Shown here: positions 19,499-51,008 of the stretch, piece after piece
Position numbering within the stretch: position 1 is the stretch's first letter
Layout: the number at the start of each line of letters is the position of its first letter
DNA from: an uncultured bacterium
GTDB taxonomy: Bacteria; Fidelibacterota; Marinisomatia; SCGC-AAA003-L08; JACNLC01
Reading direction: 5' to 3'
NCBI GenBank assembly: GCA_964527215.1
Contig: CAZGNZ010000001.1
Coordinates: 1,276 to 65,275 of the forward strand
DNA length: 64,000 bases
Made by a program: the position numbers and the translations under genes
The notes under the pieces: model-generated
The model's database searches: none
Told to the model about the DNA's origin: nothing
Seen by the model: the letters and a program-made list of their open reading frames with translations, nothing else

Positions 19499-21853
19499 TT
19501 ACAGACGGTAATCAATCCCGAAATACACATTCCGGGTTGCTCCGGGCCAATAGTAGCCGTCTCCCCATAAATAGCCATATGTTTCATACAGCGTATCAAA
19601 TATGTTGTTGGCTTTCAGCTGCAGCGTAGCAGATCCCAGCCTGTACTGTGCTGCCAGATTCACCACGGTATATGCATCAATGGCAGCGTAATCAGTGTTA
19701 TCAGCATCCAGGTATTGTTTCCCCGTGTGCTGAACAGCAACGGTGAAATCCATGTACGATGCAGGCTGATACCCGGCAGTCAGGTTTACCAGCAGATCCG
19801 GGACGACAGGCAGAACATTGTCTTTATGATCTCCCTCGGTGTACGTATTGTTGGACTTACTGCAATTCAGGCTGAAGTTCAGTTGATCAGACATGCTCCA
19901 GCTGGCTTCCATTTCCAATCCGGTATGCAGGGTTCTGTCTGCAGATTCAATATCAAAATCGGATTCTTCGAAATTATAGATATTGGACATTATCTCATTT
20001 TCGTACCGAATGTAGTAAAAATTACAGGCCACCATCCACAATTGACGGTCCATTGAAAATCCAAGCTCAAAATCATCGATTTTTTCAGGTGCGGCATTGT
20101 TGGGGGTTTCAAAAAGTTTATCTGCCTTGAGAATCTGTCCGTCTGACGGTTCTTTTTGAGCGATGCCGTAGCTGCTGTAGAAATTCAGGTCAGGGGTGTG
20201 GCGGTAGTAGAGTCCGATCCGCGGATTGAAGAAATCCCAGTCTGCTTCAATGTTATACCCTGAAAAATTCCCAATTTGATCCTGGATCAGATTCCAGTCA
20301 TGGCGTTGATACTGAAGGTCTGCTGTAGCCGTAAACTTGCCGTGCGTCAGAACGTTGTGGATGAAGGCAGTCTGGGATGTCTTCCGTCCGGAATAGCTGT
20401 AGTATCGATAGATATCGGGAATTATTTCATCAAATTCCGGATGATCCAGCTGATGAAGTTCACCGAAGTGCTGGCCTTCATATTGACGCATTTCCAAACC
20501 TGCATCAATTCGCCAGTTTTGTCCGGTATGACTGAGTGTGGGCACAATTCCGTAATAGTGGTTTCGAATCCAGCGTCGTTTATTGAATTCAATGAGATCG
20601 CTGTCCTGAGTCGGAGTGTCGGGATAGTAGAAATCCAGGTTCAGCTGGGCAAGGCTGGTGTCCCGAAACGCCTGGAAACCAGCATGGGAATCGTTTACAT
20701 CATAGTAGCAGTAATCAGGTGAACCGTAATATCCGCTTCCGGTCACCAGATAGGCAACGTTTCGCAGCATGGTGTTTTCCGAGAGAAAGAAAGCCGAGTT
20801 GAAACTGTAGATCTGCTGCAGAAAATCATCAACAAACGGTATGGACCACAGCATTTTTTCGGTCCTCAGATCCCGGTCATCCGCCATTTCCCGGCTGATT
20901 CCATCCCAGATAAGATGGCTGCGCTCCTTTCCAATGAGCATCCTGAACTGGTTTCTGAATGCACCCGAGTTTGCTTCAATCCCCGCTGAAAATGCAGTCT
21001 GTCGGGAATCGGAGTATTCACGATATCCATCGCTGGTCACGTTGGATACTCTGAATGAGGCACTCAGGTCTTCCCCCAGGCGTTTTCCGGTCTGATACCG
21101 GATATTGGCCTTTTGGGTATTGTAGCTGCCGCCCAGTACCGAGATCGCCAGCTGCTCCTCATCGGACGCAATGCGGGTCTGAACGTTTATGGACCCGCCG
21201 AAGGACGCAGCCCCGTAAAGACTGTTGCCTACACCGCGCTGGATGACCACCTCATCAGCATCGGCAAGAATATCACCGTGGTCCACCCAGTACACCTGAT
21301 GGCTTTCATTATCGTTCAGGGGAACGTCGTCAATCATAACGGCGATGCGGCTTTGGTCGAACCCGCGAATTGAGACGTAGGAATATCCGGTCCCGTTACC
21401 CGATTCACTGTACGCATATACACCGGGTTCGGATCGCAGAATCATGGGGACATCCTCTGCGGAATAGTGGCGGCTGATTTCGTCTTCGGTGAGTCTCGAG
21501 TGCGACACGGGGGTGATTCCCGGTACGATGCGGGTAGCGGAAATCTCCAGAGCCGGAATCTGTATCGCCTTTGGCTGTAAAAGAACAGTCAGAGTGGACG
21601 GACTGGCCGCCACGATGGTGGTTTCATATCCAATATGAGACACTGTAAATGCCCCTCTTACAGGGACTTCCAGACTGAAACGGCCGCTGGAATCGGTAAC
21701 TGTCCCTGAAACGTCAGTGAAAACATTGACTTCCTGAATCGGCTGACGGGTTGCGGCATCCAGAACGGTGCCTGAACATTGGATGGTTTTGCTTTGAGAT
21801 GCAAGAATTGAAAGAAGAAATGAAAAAAGCAGATACGGCAGAAACGAACGCAT
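19499..21853 (-). CDS. TonB-dependent outer-membrane receptor with N-terminal carboxypeptidase-regulatory-like domain
   Basis: 784 aa. Signal peptide, then CarboxypepD_reg-like GTVLDAATRQPIQEVNVF...GRFSLEV, plug region SYVSIRGFDQSRIAVMIDDVPLND, and C-terminal beta-barrel ending YFGIDYRL. Confidence 0.88.
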   Translation of the reverse strand: MRSFLPYLLFSFLLSILASQSKTIQCSGTVLDAATRQPIQEVNVFTDVSGTVTDSSGRFSLEVPVRGAFTVSHIGYETTIVAASPSTLTVLLQPKAIQIPALEISATRIVPGITPVSHSRLTEDEISRHYSAEDVPMILRSEPGVYAYSESGNGTGYSYVSIRGFDQSRIAVMIDDVPLNDNESHQVYWVDHGDILADADEVVIQRGVGNSLYGAASFGGSINVQTRIASDEEQLAISVLGGSYNTQKANIRYQTGKRLGEDLSASFRVSNVTSDGYREYSDSRQTAFSAGIEANSGAFRNQFRMLIGKERSHLIWDGISREMADDRDLRTEKMLWSIPFVDDFLQQIYSFNSAFFLSENTMLRNVAYLVTGSGYYGSPDYCYYDVNDSHAGFQAFRDTSLAQLNLDFYYPDTPTQDSDLIEFNKRRWIRNHYYGIVPTLSHTGQNWRIDAGLEMRQYEGQHFGELHQLDHPEFDEIIPDIYRYYSYSGRKTSQTAFIHNVLTHGKFTATADLQYQRHDWNLIQDQIGNFSGYNIEADWDFFNPRIGLYYRHTPDLNFYSSYGIAQKEPSDGQILKADKLFETPNNAAPEKIDDFELGFSMDRQLWMVACNFYYIRYENEIMSNIYNFEESDFDIESADRTLHTGLEMEASWSMSDQLNFSLNCSKSNNTYTEGDHKDNVLPVVPDLLVNLTAGYQPASYMDFTVAVQHTGKQYLDADNTDYAAIDAYTVVNLAAQYRLGSATLQLKANNIFDTLYETYGYLWGDGYYWPGATRNVYFGIDYRL

Positions 21854-21854
21854 T

Positions 21855-21950
21855 TGGTTTCCCTCCGCTAGAATTACCTAGATCAGGTTTTAAGGGTGTG
21901 ATCTCAGCCGCTTGCCTCAGGAAACACCGCAAACAGCACCCCTAACAACT
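21855..21950 (-). promoter_or_regulatory. TPP (thiamine pyrophosphate, THI-box) riboswitch
   Basis: Minus-strand RNA is AGUUGUUAGGGGUGCUGUUUGCGGUGUUUCCUGAGGCAAGCGGCUGAGAUCACACCCUUAAAACCUGAUCUAGGUAAUUCUAGCGGAGGGAAACCAAAUG. It contains the conserved GGGGUGC, CUGAGA, ACCCUU and AACCUGAUCUnGnUAAUnCnAGCGnAGGGAA blocks, with a compensated P5-type stem (CUAGGU/UCUAG) and an 8-bp variable P3 stem. Its 3' end carries the SD (GGAGGG) of the downstream receptor. Confidence 0.9.
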
Positions 21951-22003
21951 GGCGAAATTTAATCAGATACGGAGGAAAATCCCAATTGTGAAAATGCGTG
22001 GTA

Positions 22004-23317
22004 TCAACGATCGATATTCAGGCGGTAGTACTCGATCATGGCGGATAGGGAATGCTGTACATAATCGATTCGGAACTCTGTGTCCCGCGGTTTCTGCTTA
22101 TCTTTGGATTTAAACCAGTCTGGGTGCAGTCTGGGGAACGCCCCTGCCAGAGGTCCCCGAACCGACTGACCCGCAGTCAGGAAACGCAGACCTTCATCCA
22201 CAGCCGAATCGAATAAGGATGTGTCGTCAAGGAACCCGGCAGCTGCCAGAAGCCCCTCCAGTCGAGTGGCTGCCGGTGCAAGACGGCCGTCCCATACAAG
22301 ACATCCGGAATTTGGAAACAGATCATTGCATTCGCGAAACTCACTGGTGATCTGGCCGGCAATTTGTTTCGCATGATGACGGAGTGTATCGGAGATGGTC
22401 GGCTCCAGCTCCGGACTGGTATCAAGCAGTTTTCGAGTAGCGATAAGGGCCCAGTGATCAGCGGGAACGACAGAGTCATTGTACCGGCTTCGGGATAGAA
22501 ACAGCAGGGCGTTCAGTGCAGAATTCCGCCATTTCGGATCGGGATCAATATCATGGAGCATTAACAGTCCCAACGCTGCCTCTCCCGGGTAGTACAGTGA
22601 ATGCCAGGACAGATCTCTTCCGCCGTGTCCCGGACGATAACGGGACACAAATCCGCCGTTTGGCTGCTGCATCCACAGAAGAAATGAACCCAGTGCCTGC
22701 AGTGTATCCAGACCAATAAACTCCGAATCCCGGACTGCCAGTCCGGCAAGGGCAACCAGTCCCAGCCCTGTGCCGCCCAGCTTGGCCTGATAGGGGTTTT
22801 TGTTGTTGGTGATTTTTGGGACGGACCAGACTGCTTTCAGGCTGGACTCAAACTCCAATCCCTGGATGGTATTGTTTTTCAGAAATTTTCCTGCATTGCG
22901 AAGGGATTTGGAATGAGATTCGTTTTTAAGAATTCCGGATTCGTAGGTATCCATCGCATACATCGTTCCGGCATGCCTGAGGATATTATACTTTTTGCCT
23001 GCGGGGTAATTCAGATTTGGATTGGCGGCATATCTGAACTGGCCGTTTTGATCCACGGATTCTGATATATATCTGTAGGCCAGAGACATCCTGTCTTCAA
23101 GGAAACTTCCGGTCAGTTCGATGATGTCTCTGTCGAATTGATCCAGATATGCTGGTCTGTCAAATAGAATTTCCTTTTGGTTCATCTGATTAAAATTCAA
23201 AGTGGATTCATGCAGAGAAGAAATCTTTTTATCCTGCAGAACAGTGTAGATTATGGTGTTGACAGCAAAAATCCCTACGGCAACGGCAAGAAATCGAATG
23301 ATGTGTTTTTTATTCAT
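22004..23317 (-). CDS. Membrane-anchored protein of unknown function, alpha/alpha-toroid-like repeats (six-hairpin/terpenoid-cyclase-like fold suspected)
   Basis: 437 aa. N-terminal TM IIRFLAVAVGIFAVNTIIYTVL. Recurrent helix-hairpin motifs: NILRHAGTMYAM, GGTGLGLVALAGL, QQPNGGFVSRY, YYPGEAALGLLML. Confidence 0.4.
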   Translation of the reverse strand: MNKKHIIRFLAVAVGIFAVNTIIYTVLQDKKISSLHESTLNFNQMNQKEILFDRPAYLDQFDRDIIELTGSFLEDRMSLAYRYISESVDQNGQFRYAANPNLNYPAGKKYNILRHAGTMYAMDTYESGILKNESHSKSLRNAGKFLKNNTIQGLEFESSLKAVWSVPKITNNKNPYQAKLGGTGLGLVALAGLAVRDSEFIGLDTLQALGSFLLWMQQPNGGFVSRYRPGHGGRDLSWHSLYYPGEAALGLLMLHDIDPDPKWRNSALNALLFLSRSRYNDSVVPADHWALIATRKLLDTSPELEPTISDTLRHHAKQIAGQITSEFRECNDLFPNSGCLVWDGRLAPAATRLEGLLAAAGFLDDTSLFDSAVDEGLRFLTAGQSVRGPLAGAFPRLHPDWFKSKDKQKPRDTEFRIDYVQHSLSAMIEYYRLNIDR

Positions 23318-23430
23318 TTCTGATGATTTTAATGTTATTTAATATGGAGTAAAATTAGCTGGTACAGGGAATTCTGGAAACAGAAATCTGGCCGTCAGGA
23401 TTTGACTTGACCCGCATTATTCCTGAGACC

Positions 23431-23638
23431 CTGTGATGAGATGATGAAAATGTATTGATGCCGAAAAAGCAAGAATTCGACACAATTAATACGTGAAGAT
23501 CATTGAAGCTTTTTCCCGTTAAAGTACCTATGGGATTCACATTCTCCAGGGCATATGAAGAAACATGTTTGAAATCGCACTGGACAGCACGTCGAGAACA
23601 TTTTTCGATTAGAATTGAAAATCCGTTTCCTGACGGAC
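23431..23638. repeat. Intergenic repeat, copy A (about 208 nt)
   Basis: Aligns by eye at roughly 75-80% identity with 35862-36022 plus 36178-36219. Shared blocks include CCGTTAAAGnACCnATGGGATTCACnTTCTCCA and AACATTTTTCGAnTAGAATTGAAAATCCGTnTnCTGACGGAC. Confidence 0.8.
23612..23638 (-). terminator. Candidate terminator of the dehydrogenase gene (lies inside repeat copy A)
   Basis: The minus strand reads TCCGTCAGGAAACGGA (6-bp stem including one G-U pair) followed by TTTTCAATTC, 56 nt after the stop at 23694. Confidence 0.5.
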
Positions 23639-23693: not shown

Positions 23694-24704
23694 TTAAACC
23701 GTCACCTGGATTTTCCCCGGTCGATATCCGGCCGCCATTTTCTGAAGCGTCTCGGGCAGATTCGACAGTTCAATGGTTTGGCTGATCAGCGGAAGCAATG
23801 ACAGTTTTCCGGAATCGGTCAGATTCACTGCATCTGAAAATTCATCATGATAGGTCAGTGAGCCCATGATTTTCCAGTTATTCTGAAAAACATCAAATGG
23901 ACTGAAGCTGGATGATTTACGATGGTCGTACACGCCAAAAATCAGTGCTTGTCCGCCAGGACCGAGATGGGCCAGCAGCGATTCAATTACCTTGTGGTTC
24001 CCTGTGGCTTCCACACTTATGGGCCACCCGTTGGGGCAGATATCATGAAGACGGTGATGAAACCCGGGCTGCGACTTGACGGTGTTCATTATCCCAATGC
24101 TTCTGGCAGCACCCAGCCTCTCAGGCAGTCGGTCCGTAATGGTCACCGGAATATCATAAATATACTGCAGAATCTGAGCATGAAGCAGACCGATCGCGCC
24201 TGCTCCCCAAACCAATGCCTGACGACAGTGATTCAGATTCAGCTGTTTCAGGCCATAAAGAACACAGGCCAGCGGTTCACAGAAAGCGGCTTCACCGGGC
24301 TCGGCATTCCGCAGCGGATGCACATGGGATGATGGAACTGCGAGAAGCTCGGCAAATCCGCCGTTTCGAGTAACGCCTACGGCCTGGCTTGACCGGCACA
24401 GGTTACTCCGGCCGGACTGGCAGAATTCACAGCTGCCGCAGCGAATATTGGGGTCTACGGTAACCAGATCTCCTGTGGAGAAACCGGATTCTGTTCCGTT
24501 TAAATCCAGAACGACTGCCGCGATTTCGTGACACGGAACAATGGGAAAACCACCCGTGAAACTGCCCTTGAGTATATGAATGTCTGTTCCGCATATTCCG
24601 CCTAAGACCGGTTTCAAAAGGACCTCGTTTTTCTGCAGCTGTGGATCAGGAATGGTGTCCACGGAAATTTGATTGGGACCCGTAATTTGAACGCATCGCA
24701 TCAT
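23694..24704 (-). CDS. Zinc-dependent alcohol/threonine-dehydrogenase-like oxidoreductase (MDR family)
   Basis: GGICGTDIHILKG, structural-zinc motif CGSCEFCQSGRSNLC and nucleotide-binding VWGAGAIGLL. Confidence 0.85.
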   Translation of the reverse strand: MMRCVQITGPNQISVDTIPDPQLQKNEVLLKPVLGGICGTDIHILKGSFTGGFPIVPCHEIAAVVLDLNGTESGFSTGDLVTVDPNIRCGSCEFCQSGRSNLCRSSQAVGVTRNGGFAELLAVPSSHVHPLRNAEPGEAAFCEPLACVLYGLKQLNLNHCRQALVWGAGAIGLLHAQILQYIYDIPVTITDRLPERLGAARSIGIMNTVKSQPGFHHRLHDICPNGWPISVEATGNHKVIESLLAHLGPGGQALIFGVYDHRKSSSFSPFDVFQNNWKIMGSLTYHDEFSDAVNLTDSGKLSLLPLISQTIELSNLPETLQKMAAGYRPGKIQVTV

Positions 24705-35494: not shown

Positions 35495-35698
35495 ATGATA
35501 CAAGGTACAGTAAAAGTATGGGATTCCATTAAAGGATGGGGTTTCATTGAAGATGATGACGGGTACGATTTTTTTCTGCATGTTGAGCAAATACGAAAAG
35601 GACAGAAACTCAGAGTAGGTGATCGTGTTAATTTTGACGTCAGCGAAACGCAACGCGGTCCCACTGCAGAAAATGTCAGTAAAGTTACCGGCAGGTAG
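35495..35698 (+). CDS. Cold-shock domain protein (CspA family)
   Basis: 67 aa from the ATG after GGAGGG. GTVKVWDSIKGWGFIEDDDGYDFFLH matches the RNP1/RNP2 region of cold-shock proteins. Confidence 0.85.
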   Translation: MIQGTVKVWDSIKGWGFIEDDDGYDFFLHVEQIRKGQKLRVGDRVNFDVSETQRGPTAENVSKVTGR

Positions 35699-35808: not shown

Positions 35809-35838
35809 AGAAAGGAGGACAGACCTCCTTTCTTTTTA
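35809..35838 (+). terminator. Rho-independent terminator downstream of csp
   Basis: GAAAGGAGG-ACAGA-CCTCCTTTC followed by TTTTT. Confidence 0.75.
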
Positions 35839-35861
35839 GCCCGGAAGTTTCATGAAACCTT

Positions 35862-36219
35862 CTGGTGATATGATGATAATGGTCAATTCGGAAAAGTAAA
35901 AATTCTACACAATTTATGCGTGACTAACCTTTAGGCTTTTCCGTTAAAGAACCCATGGGATTCACGTTCTCCAAGGCATATAAAGAGAAAATGTGTAAAA
36001 TTGTACTGGTCAGTACGTTGAGTTGCATTTAACAACCCCCGTCCTCAGGACGTGGTTATGGCCAAAGGGCTGTGCCTGGTGTAAATGCGTAATAAAAAAT
36101 TGCGGTGTATGGCAGAAATCTGGCTTAAAGCCAACCGCCTTTGATGGTGGATAGTCAGATTTCAGCAATTTTTTTACAACATTTTTCGAATAGAATTGAA
36201 AATCCGTCTTCTGACGGAC
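35862..36219. repeat. Intergenic repeat, copy B (copy A homologue interrupted by a 155-nt insertion at 36023-36177)
   Basis: 35862-36022 and 36178-36219 align with 23431-23638. The intervening 155 nt is absent from copy A and contains nested stems, for example GCATTTA (36025-36031) / TAAATGC (36083-36089) and CGTCC-TCAG-GGACG. Confidence 0.8.
36125..36177 (+). repeat. 53-nt direct repeat unit, copy 1
   Basis: TTAAAGCCAACCGCCTTTGATGGTGGATAGTCAGATTTCAGCAATTTTTTTAC. It recurs at 36351-36402 with 2 substitutions and a 1-nt T-tract difference. Confidence 0.9.
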
Positions 36220-36350
36220 AAGTGTAACAGGGTGCATTCCCCGCCGCTTGTTGAAAATTCAGCCATTTGGCGTGGCAGGGAGATTCATTGCGTCAGAAGA
36301 AATGGCATTGTGCAGTAGAGATCGCGGACTGTGAGAAAGGCGGTTCGGGG

Positions 36351-36402
36351 TTAAAGCCAACCACCTGTGATGGTGGATAGTCAGATTTCAGCAATTTTTT
36401 AC
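36351..36402 (+). repeat. 53-nt direct repeat unit, copy 2 (37 nt upstream of the ECF sigma start)
   Basis: TTAAAGCCAACCACCTGTGATGGTGGATAGTCAGATTTCAGCAATTTTTTAC. The hairpin CCACC-TGTGAT-GGTGG is retained in copy 1 as CCGCC...GGTGG with a G-U pair. Confidence 0.9.
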
Positions 36403-36438
36403 GTTAACTTTTATGGATTCCGAGTTTCTAAGCCGCCG

Positions 36439-36975
36439 ATGATGATGACCGACCGGGAACTTATCGAAGATTTCCTCAGAGGCAATGAACAATCATTTAA
36501 TGACCTGATACGGAAACACCAGGCATGGGTTGTGAATTTTGTTATGCAGACGATCAGCATCAAGGAAGATGCGGAAGATATTGCACAGGATGTTTTTGTA
36601 AAAGTGTATTTTGCTCTGCCAAAGTTCCGTTTTGAATCTGAATTCAAAACCTGGCTGTACCGCATTGTCATCAACCGGATGAATAATTTTTTCAGGAAGC
36701 AGAAACTGCTGAACTGGTTTGGAGCGGAAATGCCGGCAGAGCCGGTAGATGCACCTTCAGAAAATAACGATGACCATCGCAGGGAATTGACTGCAATGGT
36801 AAATCGACTGCCGCGGGTGCAGAGAAATGTGACCATACTGAGATCCTTCCAGCAGATGAGTTTCAGACAGGTGGCTGCGGTGCTGAACATCACCGAAAAT
36901 TCTGCCAAAGTCTCATTTCATAAAGCCAAAAACAATTTAAAAAGGATGACCGATGGACAACATGTCAGCAGATGA
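36439..36975 (+). CDS. ECF-type RNA polymerase sigma-70 factor
   Basis: Start moved to ATG 36439 (MMMTDRELIEDFLRGNEQSFNDLIRKH); the track start 36367 lies inside the repeat. Region 2 AEDIAQDVFVKVY and region 4 SFRQVAAVLNITENSAKVSFHKAKNNLK. Confidence 0.88.
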   Translation: MMMTDRELIEDFLRGNEQSFNDLIRKHQAWVVNFVMQTISIKEDAEDIAQDVFVKVYFALPKFRFESEFKTWLYRIVINRMNNFFRKQKLLNWFGAEMPAEPVDAPSENNDDHRRELTAMVNRLPRVQRNVTILRSFQQMSFRQVAAVLNITENSAKVSFHKAKNNLKRMTDGQHVSR

Positions 36976-37291
36976 TTTTATCCGGGGTGTGCATCAGAAA
37001 ATAAATCGAAAAAAACAGTATCGGGTCATTACAAATACCACTGCTGTGGTGCTCATGACGGCAGTTATTGGATTTCTGTCACTTCAGCGGTTTTATAATA
37101 ATACCCCAGGAGCAGACTGGGCGGATATCCCACAGATTCAGACAGTGTATGAATGGGAGTTGTATACGGATGTTGAATCTGAACAGGCCTGGGAGTATCT
37201 CATTGACGAACTCAGCCTGGATGAATTGATGGAACTCCTGGAGAGTTTCGAAGATATTGCCTGGATTGAATCTATTCGAATGGAGGGCTAA
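36953..37291 (+). CDS. Putative anti-sigma factor (single TM)
   Basis: 112 aa. Overlaps the sigma gene by 23 nt. TM AVVLMTAVIGFLSL. The call rests on position and architecture only. Confidence 0.5.
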   Translation: MDNMSADDFIRGVHQKINRKKQYRVITNTTAVVLMTAVIGFLSLQRFYNNTPGADWADIPQIQTVYEWELYTDVESEQAWEYLIDELSLDELMELLESFEDIAWIESIRMEG

Positions 37292-37293
37292 TT

Positions 37294-37779
37294 ATGAGAA
37301 AAACACAACCGTATATCCATTTAATGTTTTTGGTTATGCCAGTATTGCTTGTTGGATTGTGGGCACAAGATCGCCCATCCGGGAAAGAAATGCGCATCAT
37401 GAAGAAATGGAAAATGATTGAGTACCTGAATTTGGATGAGACTCAGTCAGAACGATTTTTCCCGAGAGTTAATGCACTGGAAAATAATCTTGAAAATATT
37501 CGGGAACAGCAGACAAGTCTGCGCAATCGGCTTCGTAATCTGAAAGATGAAGATCATGTCGACTATCAGCAGATCAATGATCTGAATGATGAGATTTATG
37601 ATCTGGAAGAGGAAGCAAACCGAATGATTCGAGAACATATGCGAAATGTTGATGATATATTGTCTCCCGAGCAGAAAGTGAAATACACCATTTTTGAAGA
37701 TGAATTTAAAAAACAAATTAAAACGAAGGTATCTGAACGTACCCAAAGCGGCAAACGTCCATTTGGTAAGAGAAAATAA
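37294..37779 (+). CDS. Periplasmic Spy/CpxP-like (LTxxQ-type) protein
   Basis: 161 aa. Signal peptide, an all-helical charged sequence, LxxxQ motifs LDETQSERF and LSPEQKVKY. Confidence 0.55.
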   Translation: MRKTQPYIHLMFLVMPVLLVGLWAQDRPSGKEMRIMKKWKMIEYLNLDETQSERFFPRVNALENNLENIREQQTSLRNRLRNLKDEDHVDYQQINDLNDEIYDLEEEANRMIREHMRNVDDILSPEQKVKYTIFEDEFKKQIKTKVSERTQSGKRPFGKRK

Positions 37780-37822
37780 CATGCAGTAATCTCGCAGCCA
37801 ACTGGTAAAGAAAGGTGATCAC

Positions 37823-38482
37823 ATGAAAAAAGTACTGTTTATTCTCTTCCTGACATTCCTGGTCAGCGGATGTTATACCGTTGTACGGCCTCCGGCTTCT
37901 GCTGAACCGCCTGACAGCGACAACAGTGACCGGGAAGAATACATCATTTACAATGAGTACAATTATGTCCATCCCAGATACTACCATGATCACAGACGCT
38001 TCAGAAGATCGTTTTGGAGCGATCCATTCTGGGATCCGTACTATTACGACTACAATTACTATTATTACAATGACTGGTGGTACTGGGATCATTATTACTA
38101 CGGACACGGATACAGTTACGGAGGCGGCGGCGGAGACAGTGACGAGCCACAGCCCCGACGAACTCGTCCAATTGACCGGAATGACAGTGGGGACGCATAC
38201 GGCATCGGCGGCAGCAGCAGCGGCGGAAGCTATTACAGCAGCGGTAATGATAACATCAATTATTACAATGCCGAAAATCCCGATGAAGAGCAGGATGACA
38301 GCAATTCCGGTTACGCACCGACCCCCACTTATCGCACAGGCACGGTTGTCACGAAAGATCAATCCTCAAAGTCAGCCGGATCGGAAGAAAAAAAGAACGA
38401 TTCAAGCAGTTCCGGATCGAACAAATCAAGTTCAAAGAAAAATGACAGTAAAAAGCGTCGGAAAAGCAGAGGACGTGTATGA
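37823..38482 (+). CDS. Lipoprotein with extreme Tyr/Trp/Asp/Asn/Gly/Ser-rich low-complexity sequence
   Basis: Lipobox FLVSGC at aa 13-18, SD AAAGGTGA. The stretch DPYYYDYNYYYYNDWWYWDHYYYGHGYSYGGGGG (aa 71-104) has 14 Tyr and 3 Trp in 34 residues. Basic C-terminal tail KKNDSKKRRKSRGRV. Confidence 0.65.
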   Translation: MKKVLFILFLTFLVSGCYTVVRPPASAEPPDSDNSDREEYIIYNEYNYVHPRYYHDHRRFRRSFWSDPFWDPYYYDYNYYYYNDWWYWDHYYYGHGYSYGGGGGDSDEPQPRRTRPIDRNDSGDAYGIGGSSSGGSYYSSGNDNINYYNAENPDEEQDDSNSGYAPTPTYRTGTVVTKDQSSKSAGSEEKKNDSSSSGSNKSSSKKNDSKKRRKSRGRV

Positions 38483-39621
38483 CGAAAATGAGTATGATTT
38501 TCCTGCTGCTTCCAGCGTTGCTGGGAGCGCAGAATTATCTGGATGCCCTGCGGCCGTTCTACGGTTTTCAGAGTGTTCAGCCGCTTAACATCGCAATTGG
38601 CAACAGTACCGTTGCCGCCGGACAGGTTATTCCCGGCTTTACCAATAACCCGGCCAGTTGGGGAATGCATCGATTTACTTCGCTGCAGACCGGATTCAAT
38701 CTTTCAAATTTTGAATCTGGTTCAAAAAACCTTACCGGCAGCGGGTTCAGCGGCGTTGGGTTTACGCTCCCGGTTCAGGTCTATCGCGGAAGTCTGTCGT
38801 TTGGCGGTGGAATCTTTCAGGATTTGGACTTCAGCACCCGCTACGGCAATTCCCAATACACCTATAACGAAGAAGGCGGCATGTATAAAACCGTATTTGG
38901 ATTTTCAGTTGAATATTCAGAGAATTTCTTTGTTGGTGCAGATATACAGTATTATCGTGGCGGGGATGAAATGATTCGGTTTTACGACAGTGACAGCACT
39001 GATTATCTGGATATGGATTACAAAGGCTGGAGTGCATCGCTGGGTGCAATCCACCGGGTTTCACCCATGGTTCAGATCGGAGCTGCCATCCAGCTTCCAA
39101 CGGCAATTTGGGCAGATGAAACATTTACGTTTTCCAATCACCTGGACCCTGACGACTATGCTATATGGAATTCAGACTATAAACTCACCCGGCCCATGCA
39201 GGTATTTTTCGGCGCCAGCTTTCTCCACCCCATCATCAATATTTTTTATCAGGGAGATTGGACCGACTGGACCAATTTGAAATTTGAAGGGGATAATATT
39301 TTTGTTGATAATCAGCCGCTGGATGTGATTATTGATGAAGAAATCAGAGAAAACATGCAGACAACGCTGTCCCATCATCTGGGTTTTGCGTTTCACATTC
39401 CACAGATGCCCCTGCATTTTTACGGGGGATATCAATACCTGGAAATTCCCTATAAGAGCTTTTATGAGTCTGACATGCGGGAATCTGTCAGCGCCGGTAT
39501 TTCATATTTGATCAGTCAGCAGGTCAGCCTGCAATTTGGCCAAACCCGGTATTTCTGGGATTACCTTGGAGAAGAAGAAACATATACCCAAACCGCCTTT
39601 GGACTGACACTCCATTATTAA
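38479..39621 (+). CDS. Outer-membrane beta-barrel protein (unassigned family)
   Basis: ATGA overlap with the lipoprotein gene. Signal peptide MTKMSMIFLLLPALLGAQ, alternating amphipathic beta-strand pattern, aromatic C-terminus AFGLTLHY. Confidence 0.6.
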   Translation: MTKMSMIFLLLPALLGAQNYLDALRPFYGFQSVQPLNIAIGNSTVAAGQVIPGFTNNPASWGMHRFTSLQTGFNLSNFESGSKNLTGSGFSGVGFTLPVQVYRGSLSFGGGIFQDLDFSTRYGNSQYTYNEEGGMYKTVFGFSVEYSENFFVGADIQYYRGGDEMIRFYDSDSTDYLDMDYKGWSASLGAIHRVSPMVQIGAAIQLPTAIWADETFTFSNHLDPDDYAIWNSDYKLTRPMQVFFGASFLHPIINIFYQGDWTDWTNLKFEGDNIFVDNQPLDVIIDEEIRENMQTTLSHHLGFAFHIPQMPLHFYGGYQYLEIPYKSFYESDMRESVSAGISYLISQQVSLQFGQTRYFWDYLGEEETYTQTAFGLTLHY

Positions 39622-39655
39622 TCATGATTCATGATGCATCACGCATGATTGAGCA

Positions 39656-39684
39656 GGCCCCGCTTCGGCGGGGTTTGTATTTTA
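39656..39684 (+). terminator. Rho-independent terminator ending the ECF operon
   Basis: CCCCGC-TTCG-GCGGGG followed by TTTGTATTTT. Confidence 0.8.
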
Positions 39685-40014
39685 TGATGATCATATCTGC
39701 CGAATTTCCAAACCTGACATAGCAGTATTTCAAATTGACTGCCGGGAATTACTGTCCGGCGGATCAGGAATTTCCATAGTAATATTAGAGAACATCAGAT
39801 CCGTATGCATCTGCCTGCCCGCCCTTTCAAAGCAATAGGCTGACAGAATCTGTATTCATTCCATTTTCCATGCTGAAGGATATAATTGATCACCGGACGC
39901 GGGTAATTTTCCGGGTTTTATTTCATCCTGAAAAAAATTTCACCGGTGGTAAATTACTTTGCTTGAATCGATGATGGTTCTGTATGTTGAGTTTTCACAG
40001 GAGTCTGAAGCATA

Positions 40015-40374
40015 ATGGGCAAAATCTGTATTAACAATCTGAAACTCTTTGGATATCACGGATGTCTGGTTGAGGAAAATAATCTCGGCCAATGGTTCGA
40101 AATCGATGCGGAAATTCTGACGGATATTCGTGAAGCAGGCCGAACCGACAAACTGGAAAATACCGTTGATTACAGGGAAGTGATCAAGTGCATTTCGACC
40201 GTATTTGCTGAGAAAAAGTATCGCCTGCTGGAATGCCTCGCAACAGATATTGGCCACAGAATTCTGGAAATTAGGGGAATAACGGAAGTCTCCGTGACAA
40301 TTCGGAAACCGCAGGTTCCCGTGGATGCCGTACTGGACTGGGTATCTGTTTCCGAGACAATGAGGAAGGTATAA
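40015..40374 (+). CDS. folB: Dihydroneopterin aldolase
   Basis: 119 aa. INNLKLFGYHGCLVEENNLGQWFEIDAEI and TVDYREV are typical of FolB. Confidence 0.85.
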   Translation: MGKICINNLKLFGYHGCLVEENNLGQWFEIDAEILTDIREAGRTDKLENTVDYREVIKCISTVFAEKKYRLLECLATDIGHRILEIRGITEVSVTIRKPQVPVDAVLDWVSVSETMRKV

Positions 40375-40883
40375 TGGGTCAGGTGTTTTTAGCGCTTGGA
40401 TCCAATCTGGGCAATCGTTTAAATCATCTGCAAACCGGTCTTGGTGAGCTGGAAATGCTGGGATGCACGATTTTCAGGGAATCTCCGGTGTATGAAACTC
40501 CGCCGATGTATTATCTGGACCAGAACAAGTTTCTCAACCAGGTTGTTGAAATGGTTACATCCATGACTCCGATGGAACTGTTGGTCGCGGCCAAACAGGT
40601 AGAGCGCACGAACGGGCGCATCGAAAAAACATTCAGAAACGGTCCGCGCACTCTGGATATTGATATTCTGTGTTTTGACGCTCTGACACTGAGTGAACGA
40701 CTTCTGGTCATTCCGCATCCTAAAATTGCAGAGAGACGGTTTGTGCTTCAGCCCTGGAATGATATTGCACCTGGGTATATTGTGCCAGGATTGAACAAGA
40801 CCGTTGCACAACTGTTGACAGATACTTCGGATTGTTCAAAAATTTATCGGTATCATACCGACTTAATAAGTGAAATACAATGA
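40374..40883 (+). CDS. folK: 2-amino-4-hydroxy-6-hydroxymethyldihydropteridine diphosphokinase
   Basis: VFLALGSNLGNR, GPRTLDIDIL and IPHPKIAERRFVLQPW. Confidence 0.9.
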   Translation: MGQVFLALGSNLGNRLNHLQTGLGELEMLGCTIFRESPVYETPPMYYLDQNKFLNQVVEMVTSMTPMELLVAAKQVERTNGRIEKTFRNGPRTLDIDILCFDALTLSERLLVIPHPKIAERRFVLQPWNDIAPGYIVPGLNKTVAQLLTDTSDCSKIYRYHTDLISEIQ

Positions 40884-41524
40884 AATCTGCATATTATATC
40901 GCTATTGAAGGCACAATCGGTGTAGGCAAAACCAGCCTCGCCAAAATACTCACTGACCGTCTGGATGCCAGACTGATTGTTGAAGAGTTTGAGGAAAATC
41001 CGTTTCTGGCTGATTTCTACAGAAAACCAGAGAGGTTTGCATTTCAGACGCAGCTGTTCTTCCTGCTGTCCAGATATCGACAGCAGCTGGAACTTCAGCA
41101 AATGGAGCTTTTCACAAAAGCGATCGTGTCAGATTATATGTTTGCCAAGGATCGGCTGTTTGCATCGCTGAATCTTGATGACAAGGAAATGTCCCTTTAC
41201 AATTCCGTTGCCAATTTGCTGGAAAAAAATATTACATACCCGGATTTAGTCATATTCCTGCAGTCGGATACGGATCGGCTGATGGCCAATATTCGAAAAC
41301 GCGGCCGGGAATATGAGGTAGATATGGATTGGAAATACATTGACGCGTTGAATCAGATATACAATGAATATTTTTTCAGATATGATAAAAGTCCGCTGCT
41401 GATAATAAATACGAACGATATTGATTTTGTGAACAATGACGAAGACCTGGAAGAAATTCTGAATTTCATTCGAACGCCCAGCAAAGGTACAAAGTTTTTC
41501 AATCCGATCAAGAGCATGTACTAG
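40880..41524 (+). CDS. Deoxynucleoside kinase
   Basis: P-loop IAIEGTIGVGKTSLAKIL, followed by EEFEENPFLADFY and the ERFAFQTQLFFLLSRY pattern of the dNK family. Confidence 0.85.
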   Translation: MKSAYYIAIEGTIGVGKTSLAKILTDRLDARLIVEEFEENPFLADFYRKPERFAFQTQLFFLLSRYRQQLELQQMELFTKAIVSDYMFAKDRLFASLNLDDKEMSLYNSVANLLEKNITYPDLVIFLQSDTDRLMANIRKRGREYEVDMDWKYIDALNQIYNEYFFRYDKSPLLIINTNDIDFVNNDEDLEEILNFIRTPSKGTKFFNPIKSMY

Positions 41525-41531
41525 AGGATGT

Positions 41532-41711
41532 ATGGGTAAAATTATTATTCTGGGATTGGTCTTATGGATGGCCTATACATGGCTAAAGGGTTTTCTAATC
41601 AAGAATGACCACCCGGACCGCATGTTCAAACGGCCTAGGCAGAGCAAAAACGGAAAGTCTCAGAAAGCAGGAATGGATATTCAGGATGCCGAATATGAGG
41701 AAATAGAATGA
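41532..41711 (+). CDS. Small membrane protein (59 aa) missing from the ORF track
   Basis: SD GAGGA 5 nt upstream. Sequence MGKIIILGLVLWMAYTWLKGFLIKNDHPDRMFKRPRQSKNGKSQKAGMDIQDAEYEEIE*. Its stop overlaps the next start (ATGA at 41708-41711). One TM, a basic linker and an acidic DAEYEEIE tail. Confidence 0.55.
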   Translation: MGKIIILGLVLWMAYTWLKGFLIKNDHPDRMFKRPRQSKNGKSQKAGMDIQDAEYEEIE

Positions 41712-42733
41712 AAGCTGTTCGCATTCATACGCATGGTGACACGAAGATGCTGAAAGTAGAGGATCTGACGGAACCTGTCATTTCCCCGGACAAGGTGAAA
41801 ATTCAGATCAGGGCTGCTTCGCTTAACCATCTGGATATTTGGGTGCGGAGGGGAATTCCAGGATTGTCACTGCCTTTGATCATGGGCTCGGACGGTGCCG
41901 GAGTTATCACAGAAGTTGGAAGCAGTGTATCAGGTTATCAGGTTGGAGACGAAGTGGTGATCCAGCCGAACTGTTTCTGCGGCAGCTGCCCATCCTGCCG
42001 GGCCGGGATGGAAAATTACTGCACTGACTATGGCATCATCGGAGAAACAGAACAGGGGGTTCAATGTGAATATACGGTACTGGACCCAATTAATGTCTAT
42101 TCGAAACCGGACCATTTGAGTTTTATCGAAGCAGCTTCGATGCCATTGGTTTTTCTGACGGCTTATGAGATGCTTGTACCAAGGGCAGGGCTGAAGGGCG
42201 GTGAGAATATCCTGATTTACGGCGGTACATCCGGTGTTGGCAGTGCAGCGATTCAGATTGCCAAAGACATTGGGGCAAAAATCGCTGCAACGGTTGGCAG
42301 TTCCCACAAAATGGATGCAGCATACGAGATGGGCGCGGACCATGTGGTGGATCACAGCAGCCCGGACTGGATCGGAGATCTTCGGAAATTCTGTGGTCGC
42401 GGCGGGTTCAGCGTAATATTTGAACATGTTGGGAAAGCTACATGGGATGCCAGCATGAAACTGCTGGGTAAAGGGGGAAGACTGGTTACCTGCGGAGGAA
42501 CGACAGGCCCTTTCGTAACAATCGATTTACGCCATCTGTTTATGAAACAGCAATCTATACTCGGTTCAACAATGAGCTCGATGACGTCCTTTCGGACTGT
42601 GATGAAAAAAATCAATGAAAAGCGGTACCGGCCGTTTGTCGATCAGGTATTTCCATTCAGTAAAATCAGGGAAGCTCACAGCTGGCTTGAGAACCGCCGA
42701 CAGATCGGGAAAGTTGTTGTGGTTCCTGATTAG
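41708..42733 (+). CDS. Zinc-binding alcohol dehydrogenase / quinone oxidoreductase family (MDR)
   Basis: 341 aa. MGSDGAGVI, CGSCPSCRAGMENYC, GGTSGVGSAAIQIAK and GKVVVVP. Confidence 0.85.
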   Translation: MKAVRIHTHGDTKMLKVEDLTEPVISPDKVKIQIRAASLNHLDIWVRRGIPGLSLPLIMGSDGAGVITEVGSSVSGYQVGDEVVIQPNCFCGSCPSCRAGMENYCTDYGIIGETEQGVQCEYTVLDPINVYSKPDHLSFIEAASMPLVFLTAYEMLVPRAGLKGGENILIYGGTSGVGSAAIQIAKDIGAKIAATVGSSHKMDAAYEMGADHVVDHSSPDWIGDLRKFCGRGGFSVIFEHVGKATWDASMKLLGKGGRLVTCGGTTGPFVTIDLRHLFMKQQSILGSTMSSMTSFRTVMKKINEKRYRPFVDQVFPFSKIREAHSWLENRRQIGKVVVVPD

Positions 42734-42752
42734 GAACAGGAGGATGGATTAA

Positions 42753-43136
42753 ATGAAGATGCCGGAAAAACATGTATTCATCTGTACAAATGAAAGAACA
42801 CCCACCGGACCAAAGCAGAGCTGCGGAATGGCAGGGGGGCACGATATCCGGATTGCTCTGAAAAAGGAACTTGCCAGAAGGGGGATGCTGTCACAGGTCC
42901 GCTCCAGCAAGTCAGGCTGCCTGGGCACCTGCGAGATGGGGCCGACAATGGTCATTTATCCGCAGGGAGTCTGGTATAAAAGGGTGAAGGTGGAAGACAT
43001 ACCGGAAATCGTGGAAAAAACCATCATTCGGAATCAGATCATAGACCGGCTCATTTTCAAACAGCAGGATTGGATCACATGTCGGGGAGAGACTCCGCAA
43101 AATGTAACCGATGATGATAAGGGGGCAGGTCAGTGA
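42753..43136 (+). CDS. Thioredoxin-like [2Fe-2S] ferredoxin
   Basis: HVFICTNER...SCG...GCLGTCEMGPTMVIYPQGVWY matches the four-Cys pattern of that family. Confidence 0.8.
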   Translation: MKMPEKHVFICTNERTPTGPKQSCGMAGGHDIRIALKKELARRGMLSQVRSSKSGCLGTCEMGPTMVIYPQGVWYKRVKVEDIPEIVEKTIIRNQIIDRLIFKQQDWITCRGETPQNVTDDDKGAGQ

Positions 43137-43642
43137 GATTTATCCTGTCAGTATCATTTGCTCTCTGCATTCAGATTATATCCGCTGCCGGGCATCATGG
43201 AATTGCTTTCCGCATGTATGAAGAGGGGACCGCACTGCAGTATTCCTTTACCAGCTATTTCACACAGGTTTGGCACGGTAACTTTACAACCGGCATTCAT
43301 TTTGAGCAGGACGGGCGTGCCATTGATCCTTTCACGGGGGAGGAATATCCCAGGCGGCAGCGAACGTTTCTCCCTGTAATAATTGGGATTGAAAGAGTGC
43401 TTTTTCAGGATTCTATGGCTGGAAGTTTCCGTCCGATTCTGTTTGCCGAAGCAGGTGAAGTCGGAGATTTTTCCGGAAAGCGGTTTTGGGATCGGGAAAT
43501 AGTCTGGACTCCCATGTTTGCTGCAGGCGCCGGAGTACAGTTCACGGCAGGCAGCACACGGAACCGTATGACAATCGGGCGCTTGAGCAGCAGACAGCTT
43601 GAGGGAAACATCGTCATGGAATTGACCATATACTGGAAGTAA
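43133..43642 (+). CDS. Hypothetical secreted protein (small beta-rich, possibly outer membrane)
   Basis: 169 aa. Signal-like N-terminus MRFILSVSFALCIQIISAAG, 4-nt overlap with the ferredoxin gene, C-terminal aromatic residues ELTIYWK. Confidence 0.4.
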   Translation: MRFILSVSFALCIQIISAAGHHGIAFRMYEEGTALQYSFTSYFTQVWHGNFTTGIHFEQDGRAIDPFTGEEYPRRQRTFLPVIIGIERVLFQDSMAGSFRPILFAEAGEVGDFSGKRFWDREIVWTPMFAAGAGVQFTAGSTRNRMTIGRLSSRQLEGNIVMELTIYWK

Positions 43643-50923: not shown

Positions 50924-51008
50924 GCTGAAGTGGTGAAACTGGTAGACACGCTGTCTTGAGGGGGCAGTGGGAGAAACTCCCGTGCGGGTTCGAGTCCCGC
51001 CTTCAGCA
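50924..51008 (+). tRNA. leuU: tRNA-Leu (anticodon GAG at 50958-50960), class II with long variable arm
   Basis: Acceptor GCTGAAG/CTTCAGC, anticodon arm CTGTC-TTGAGGG-GGCAG, variable arm GGGAG-AAA-CTCCC, T-arm GCGGG-TTCGAGT-CCCGC. CCA is not encoded. Confidence 0.93.

Follow-up and report, generated by a model that had tools for sequence, protein, structure and literature searches.

The non-coding sequence at 23431-23638 of the window, by which we mean the whole 64,000-nt stretch of DNA analyzed here, is one member of a diverged repeat pair, and the element is composite. Its two modules, a ~190-nt body (M1) and a 42-nt double-hairpin end (D4), are separable by the point at which one copy is interrupted, by unequal conservation, and by structure. 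We give about even odds, a probability near 0.5, to the reading that the element is a lineage-specific, low-copy, modular intergenic repeat in which M1 would be a neutral relic and D4 a maintained palindromic module that has spread by recombination.

Searching copy A against the 64-kb window by blastn, we found that its body (23420-23596) matched 35849-36022 with 76.4% identity over 178 nt (E 1e-30) and that its right end (23597-23638) matched 36178-36219, in the same orientation, with 92.9% identity over 42 nt (E 3e-12). The window contained no match besides this second copy, copy B. These values confirm the original prediction, which had paired 23431-23638 with 35862-36022 plus 36178-36219 and had held the similarity to exceed chance; indeed, the similarity is genuine and far above chance, and the three shared blocks that had been quoted were all found as written. 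Alignment with MAFFT extended the left edge to 23407/35836, ~24 nt past the start first given, and the right limit of similarity is sharp, directly after GACGGAC. Copy A (23407-23638) is therefore co-linear with copy B (35836-36022 plus 36178-36219), in direct orientation and ~12 kb apart. Copy A sits between the stop codon of an alcohol dehydrogenase (ADH) gene and the start of a gene for a 437-aa protein, both on the minus strand, and copy B sits between a cold-shock gene (csp) and an ECF sigma gene, both on the plus strand. The csp terminator bounds copy B on the left and lies outside the repeat. The genes and modules are as follows.

24704..23694, minus strand: zinc-type ADH gene, stop codon at 23694-23696.
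22004..23317, minus strand: gene for the 437-aa protein, without a Pfam or NCBIfam family.
23407..23596, unstranded: M1 of copy A, non-coding body, 89 nt upstream of the start of the 437-aa gene.
23597..23638, unstranded: D4 of copy A, double-hairpin module, with hairpins HP1 (TTTTCGAT-TAGA-ATTGAAAA) and HP2 (TCCGTT-TCCT-GACGGA).
35495..35698, plus strand: csp.
35810..35837, plus strand: canonical csp terminator, GAAAGGAGG-ACAGA-CCTCCTTTC followed by T5, dG -15.8 kcal/mol.
35836..36022, unstranded: M1 of copy B, beginning at the end of the T-run of the csp terminator.
36178..36219, unstranded: D4 of copy B, with HP2 (TCCGTC-TTCT-GACGGA) giving 7 bp on the minus strand followed by TTTT.
36370..36975, plus strand: ECF sigma gene, coordinates as annotated at NCBI.

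No ORF or reading frame is common to copies A and B. Their sole common short frame is shifted by a 1-nt indel, and substitutions fall mostly at second codon positions. Furthermore, none of seven overlapping small ORFs was present in a collection of 15 billion proteins (exact look-up), and the open frames, concatenated into 277 aa, matched no protein at E<=10. A coding reading was rejected on the differing frames, the 1-nt indel, and the predominance of second-position changes. Neither copy codes for protein, as had been proposed, and the pair is a true non-coding repeat.

The M1 copies are 75% identical (142/190 columns) and differ by 22 transitions, 24 transversions, and 5 gap columns. Under uniformly spread differences, neither the best 50-column window (43 matches, p=0.34) nor the longest exact run (11 nt, p=0.91) is unusual. 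The long shared blocks noted earlier are thus present, but those inside the body are not longer than a uniform 75% identity predicts. The consensus fold of M1, compared with column-shuffled alignments, gave z-scores of -0.04 (plus strand) and a marginal -2.0 (minus strand; 6/150 shuffles), and that of the whole element, a two-sequence alignment, gave -1.2 and -1.8. Folded singly, copy A shows ordinary stability on both strands (z -0.9 and +0.5); the values of copy B (z -2.4 and -3.4) stem from hairpins within a 155-nt segment that copy A lacks. In a small M1 hairpin at ~23578-23593, every difference between the copies is a G.U/A-U change on the minus strand. A 6S-like or other long structured RNA was rejected on the fold z-scores. 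Since conservation is evenly spread and transitions and transversions are balanced, M1 behaves like an old duplicate of non-coding DNA that would be in neutral decay and functionless in itself, a neutrality judged from two sequences.

D4 differs from M1 in both conservation and structure. Its copies are ~93% identical (40/43 columns), above the 75% of M1 (Fisher p=0.0075), and the 155-nt interruption of copy B falls exactly on the boundary between the two modules. The consensus fold of D4 has a z-score of -3.6 on the plus strand (1/300 shuffles) and of -1.3 on the minus strand; it is significant on the plus strand because its G.U pairs form only there, becoming A.C on the minus strand. HP1 is AT-rich, hairpin energies range from -3 to -9.5 kcal/mol, and the two hairpins together make a short imperfect palindrome. 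The right-end hairpin, TCCGTTTCCTGACGGA in copy A and TCCGTCTTCTGACGGA in copy B, is retained in both, as the original prediction had it, with TTTT on the minus strand, and was flagged as terminator-like in both; on the plus strand, the T/C difference between the copies replaces a U.G pair with C-G. Covariation computed on these two sequences has no statistical power. A dispersed structured element spanning the entire ~200-nt unit, as had been proposed, was not supported: M1 shows no significant consensus structure and uniform conservation, and only two copies occur in ~83 kb.

The interruption of copy B and the spacer to its right share sequence. Two further features are relevant here.

36023..36177, plus strand: 155-nt segment absent from copy A, holding D1 copy 1 (36119-36177).
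36262..36402, plus strand: sigma-upstream unit with D1 copy 2 (36345-36402), directly before and overlapping the start of the ECF sigma gene.

By local alignment, 36061-36177 is a diverged duplicate of 36262-36402, within which the D1 core (56-59 nt) is 93% identical between copies and includes a 32-nt exact match. As the 155-nt segment aligns with the region just upstream of the sigma gene, the csp-sigma spacer has, to judge from this alignment, probably been rearranged by local duplication. The alternative that the 155 nt are foreign DNA or a nested insertion was rejected, given that most of the segment is a diverged duplicate of 36262-36402. D1 copy 1 is enclosed in a hairpin with a 13-bp stem (36112-36166) followed by T7 (36169-36175), at -23.4 kcal/mol on the plus strand, and the sigma-proximal copy is without the left stem arm. 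The hairpin and its T7 (36112-36175) are predicted to form a strong terminator-like structure. This structure contains an inner CCGCC/GGTGG hairpin and lies on the plus strand ~330 nt past the csp terminator, the two being separated by no annotated gene. Separately, the D1 core reads CCAACC-N17-TAGTCAGA, ~25-45 nt before the probable sigma start, and recurs in the upstream duplicate; as an idea only, this arrangement might be likened to the AAC...GTC layout of autoregulated ECF-sigma promoters.

To count copies beyond the window, we used ~83 kb of this genome (the window, ~1 kb to its left, and ~17.8 kb to its right). Within it, blastn, nhmmer, and a covariance model detected only two known copies per module; the nhmmer profiles and the D4 covariance model were run over ~107 kb of sequence, of which ~83 kb came from this genome. 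The copy count that the original prediction had called for accordingly stands at two by direct search, and, of the two modules M1 and D4, a third context is indicated for D4 alone, by assembly junctions. Logan assemblies consist of de Bruijn-graph contigs built with k=31 (PMC12424806). Logan contigs with 100% identity to the window were obtained from many runs of at least three sequencing projects. One junction falls in D4.

23597..23626, unstranded: junction 30-mer AACATTTTTCGATTAGAATTGAAAATCCGT, the D4 core, over which contigs from both sides overlap by exactly k-1.

All contigs on the side of the 437-aa gene end at 23626 (L001, L002, and 7 similar), and all those on the ADH side start at 23597 (L025-L030, with L030 found in 11 samples). 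An exact 30-nt (k-1) overlap denotes a branching node, so the 30-mer has other neighbors in those samples. Copy B cannot cause this junction, because its sequence differs within the 30-mer (GATTAG instead of GAATAG). Two controls showed the same pattern: given the 32-nt exact match in D1, a right-hand contig should start at 36371, as L035 does (sigma-side Logan contigs start at 36371/36373), and a tRNA-Leu gene also displays an exact 30-nt overlap (50940-50969). Since the D1 repeat and tRNA-Leu behave alike, the junction signature marks multi-copy sequence. In addition, L030 and L032 end at 36136, and the 30-mer at 36107-36136 is a junction unexplained by anything in the window. Apparently, then, there is at least one more D4-bearing sequence and at least one more sequence bearing the D1 unit, which we infer from the k-1 junctions rather than from direct sight of them. 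These extra contexts probably lie elsewhere in the same genome; alternatively, the junctions may stem from a structural variant of the locus carried by a co-occurring strain, or from a related organism sharing these communities.

The D4 contrast and the junctions bear directly on the best-surviving alternative, a one-off segmental duplication in which a ~230-nt piece, comprising the ADH terminator and the downstream spacer, was copied once into the csp-sigma spacer and both copies are now relics. Under it, the better conservation of D4 would be due to chance or to hairpin stems tolerating fewer changes. The finding of only two copies in ~83 kb with no homologue in the scanned collections, the neutral-looking divergence of M1, and the absence of any terminal inverted repeat (TIR) or target-site duplication (TSD) all agree with such an event. 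It is contradicted only by the conservation contrast, D4 being more conserved than M1 at p=0.0075, and by the junction evidence: the k-1 junction at the D4 30-mer, present in every Logan assembly, demands a third context, and the D1 region holds a second unexplained junction (36107-36136). We regard a one-off duplication as possible, if on the whole doubtful.

On the preferred reading, that of a modular repeat with a maintained D4, the two copies of D4 would have been kept similar either by selection on their hairpins or by gene conversion among copies. The extra 155 nt of copy B would derive from local duplication of the ECF sigma upstream region, and the spacer would have been reshuffled through recombination and duplication and not through transposition; recombination is favored over transposition because TIRs and TSDs are absent. 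A module of the D4 type that lands just after a gene could then provide its hairpin as a 3'-end structure of the transcript. In copy A, D4 was probably exapted as the 3'-end hairpin of ADH, and in copy B it would have no such job. The site concerned is the following.

23617..23638, minus strand: terminator-like hairpin GTCCGTCAGGAAACGGAT followed by TTTT, ~55 nt after the ADH stop codon.

Between ADH and the gene that follows, no other terminator-like site was flagged on the minus strand. On the minus strand, HP2 has a folding energy of -6.0 kcal/mol in copy A and -9.5 kcal/mol in copy B, compared with -15.8 kcal/mol for the csp terminator. The HP2 of copy A with its U-run may plausibly act as a weak terminator or as a 3'-end stabilizer of the ADH mRNA. 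That the hairpin of copy A can terminate the dehydrogenase, as suggested beforehand, is thus plausible but weak, and the companion statement, that no minus-strand gene is there to be terminated in copy B, holds true, both neighbors of that copy (csp and ECF sigma) lying on the plus strand. Two points fit this role poorly, namely that the structure signal of D4 is on the plus strand and that the hairpin is weak and followed by T4 only.

Another alternative is a pair of paralogous small RNAs transcribed from the plus strand, starting near the left end of M1, with the central block as seed and D4 as 3' stem-loops. Both contexts permit an independent plus-strand unit, the D4 fold is significant on the plus strand only, weak sigma-70-like boxes (ATGAAA-17-GATAAT) occur at 35852-35880 in copy B, and M1 of this copy is followed by the strong plus-strand hairpin and T7. 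However, promoter matches occur at the rate of shuffled sequence (2 found versus 1.5 expected) and none was flagged in copy A; no U-run follows D4 on the plus strand, the hairpin with a U-run being on the minus strand, at the minus-strand 5' end of the element. M1, moreover, has no plus-strand structure (z -0.04), its central block is not conserved above background, and in copy B a terminator splits M1 from D4, which implies differently built RNAs. Adding the lack of any Rfam match and of homologues elsewhere, we find an sRNA pair unlikely. The Bacteroidota-type promoter TAnnTTTG, which is not enriched in the window (27 occurrences versus 34 expected), was set aside as a guide.

A cis-regulatory module, with sites of one regulator upstream of the 437-aa and TonB-dependent receptor genes (copy A) and of the ECF sigma operon (copy B), is in our estimation very unlikely. 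Both copies do lie in promoter-proximal spacers, and partial palindromes are present (CCCATGGG in copy B and TTTTCGAT..ATTGAAAA). Yet the copies share one absolute orientation although their candidate targets lie to opposite sides and on opposite strands, the start codons are unequally far away (89 nt for copy A versus ~150 nt plus the 155-nt insertion for copy B), CCCATGGG is imperfect in copy A, and conservation is not enriched at the palindromes.

A MITE-like non-autonomous transposable element, with a nested insertion in copy B, is highly unlikely: the dispersal, the non-coding nature, the ~230-nt size, the sharp right boundary, the breaking of assemblies inside the element, and, in the copy B segment, a 13-bp inverted repeat (36112-36124 / 36154-36166) flanking a ~30-nt core are set against the lack of TIRs (the left end, TTGACCCGCATT / TTAGCCCGGAAG, is not complementary to the right end, CTGACGGAC, and a repeat search of the window showed no inverted pair joining the element ends), the lack of a TSD in copy B (flanks …CTTTCTTTTT|element|AAGTGTAAC…) and only imperfect, offset flanks in copy A (GGATTTGAC / GGAATTTTGAC), a 75% identity that implies no recent mobility, the homology of the "nested insertion" to the adjacent sigma-upstream DNA, and the lack of a plasmid, phage, or viral match and of a transposase nearby. 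Its copy number amounts to two copies, at 75-93% identity, in ~83 kb. Considering the copies as attL/attR of an island lying between them was likewise rejected, as their identity is only 75% and the interval carries housekeeping genes. Together, these comparisons sustain the part of the original prediction that described a true non-coding repeat with a conserved hairpin, and leave its sRNA, MITE, and regulatory-module readings unsupported.

The element is not assignable to any named family and has no sequence similarity to anything searched. At gathering thresholds, Rfam identified only a TPP riboswitch and two tRNAs in the whole window, all elsewhere, and permissive Rfam scans of both copies returned only noise (E>=0.24, bits far under thresholds), in line with the earlier failure to match the element to a familiar RNA family. 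An exact core of the element, ATGGGATTCACNTTCTCCA, had 18 hits in GTDB genomes, which equals chance expectation, and none was extended by blastn; another, GANTAGAATTGAAAATCCGT, had one chance match in JGI metagenomes, and two cores gave chance 17-mers only in IMG/VR. Such scans demand exact words, which diverged copies would escape, and both large collections scanned lack this organism. Plasmid and phage collections gave no match by blastn. The search for orthologous spacers found no close relative in the collections, the homologues of the 437-aa protein being at most 47% identical and the ADH cluster comprising this organism only.

Compared with the REP/BIME sequences of Enterobacteria and Pseudomonas, D4 is similarly a ~40-nt imperfect palindrome, intergenic and just past a gene 3' end, that occurs in mosaic with other short modules and whose hairpin could serve as a 3'-end structure or terminator. 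It differs in having no GTAG-type head, with no RAYT/TnpA-REP gene in the 83 kb read, in its number (2 per ~83 kb plus at least one inferred, versus hundreds in E. coli), and in consisting of two adjacent hairpins, one of them AT-rich. The BOX elements of Streptococcus pneumoniae are modular (boxA-boxB-boxC) and exceed 100 copies per genome. Like them, M1, the D1-containing unit, and D4 occur in different combinations per copy and are non-coding, intergenic, and partly hairpin-forming; there is, however, no sequence similarity, and the ends of BOX, A and C, pair, whereas M1 and D4 do not. MITEs and Correia/ERIC-type elements share with our repeat a length of ~130-230 nt, an intergenic location, and a lack of coding capacity, but their defining TIRs and TSDs are absent here and the body copies are only 75% identical. 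With paralogous sRNA families such as Qrr, our repeat shares the presence, within a single genome, of two non-coding loci that resemble each other and have a conserved 3' hairpin. It departs from them in having neither a conserved promoter nor, on the structured strand, a U-tailed terminator, in its unstructured body, and in a 155-nt indel that carries a terminator and splits one copy.

A more ambitious interpretation, which we consider a long shot, is that D4, and perhaps the D1 unit, represents an undescribed many-copy family of plus-strand structured or mobile palindromes that shapes transcript ends in an FCB/Bacteroidota-related lineage, or that M1 plus D4 is a paralogous sRNA pair linked to the ECF-sigma and TonB/thiamine loci. 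The significance of the element beyond this genome is small. Short modular repeats of this kind fragment k=31 assemblies at reproducible points, a property useful for binning and scaffolding this uncultured lineage, and the locus illustrates how a long, conspicuous stretch of repeated non-coding DNA may be a neutral duplicate in which just a small hairpin core is conserved. Were D4 high-copy, it would be a new REP-like element in a lineage without a described one and a marker for strain typing and terminator annotation.

Several other features were observed in and around the window. Positions 1349-2150 form a region of ~800 nt without a convincing ORF or a Pfam or Rfam match, with a GC-rich hairpin at 1726-1752, and a reproducible Logan breakpoint is found at ~1693-1722, where contigs start at 1693 in 12+ samples and the neighbor ends at 1721. 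Some 17.8 kb beyond the right edge of the window, contigs of two different projects (L048:1-229 and L049:1-229) stop at an identical base, which lies 229 nt after the stop codon of GatD; this end presumably marks a further junction of a repeat or variant, and its sequence is unrelated to M1, D4, and D1. Contig L034 (SRR29008690) differs from window positions 36371-43312 at 10/6940 positions, and the sequence of L035 (SRR31802801) parts from that of the window on the downstream side of the 161-aa Metal_resist gene. Immediately outside the left edge of the window, MntP is adjoined by genes for a flagellin (Flagellin_N/C) and an HTH_17 protein (L047:1223-2317). Bacteroidota are usually non-flagellated, and the best named protein matches of this organism, at ~65% identity, are to Bacteroidota. 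The 437-aa protein, which falls in no Pfam or NCBIfam family, has more than 1500 homologues of at most 47% identity in Bacteroidota, Desulfobacterales, Cyanobacteria, and Planctomycetota, and constitutes a widespread uncharacterized family. Just after its gene, at 21843-21953 on the minus strand, lies the TPP riboswitch (64 bits), directly upstream of the TonB-dependent receptor gene, whose product has a CarboxypepD_reg N-domain. With its riboswitch and receptor, this locus looks like a thiamine-related outer-membrane uptake locus.
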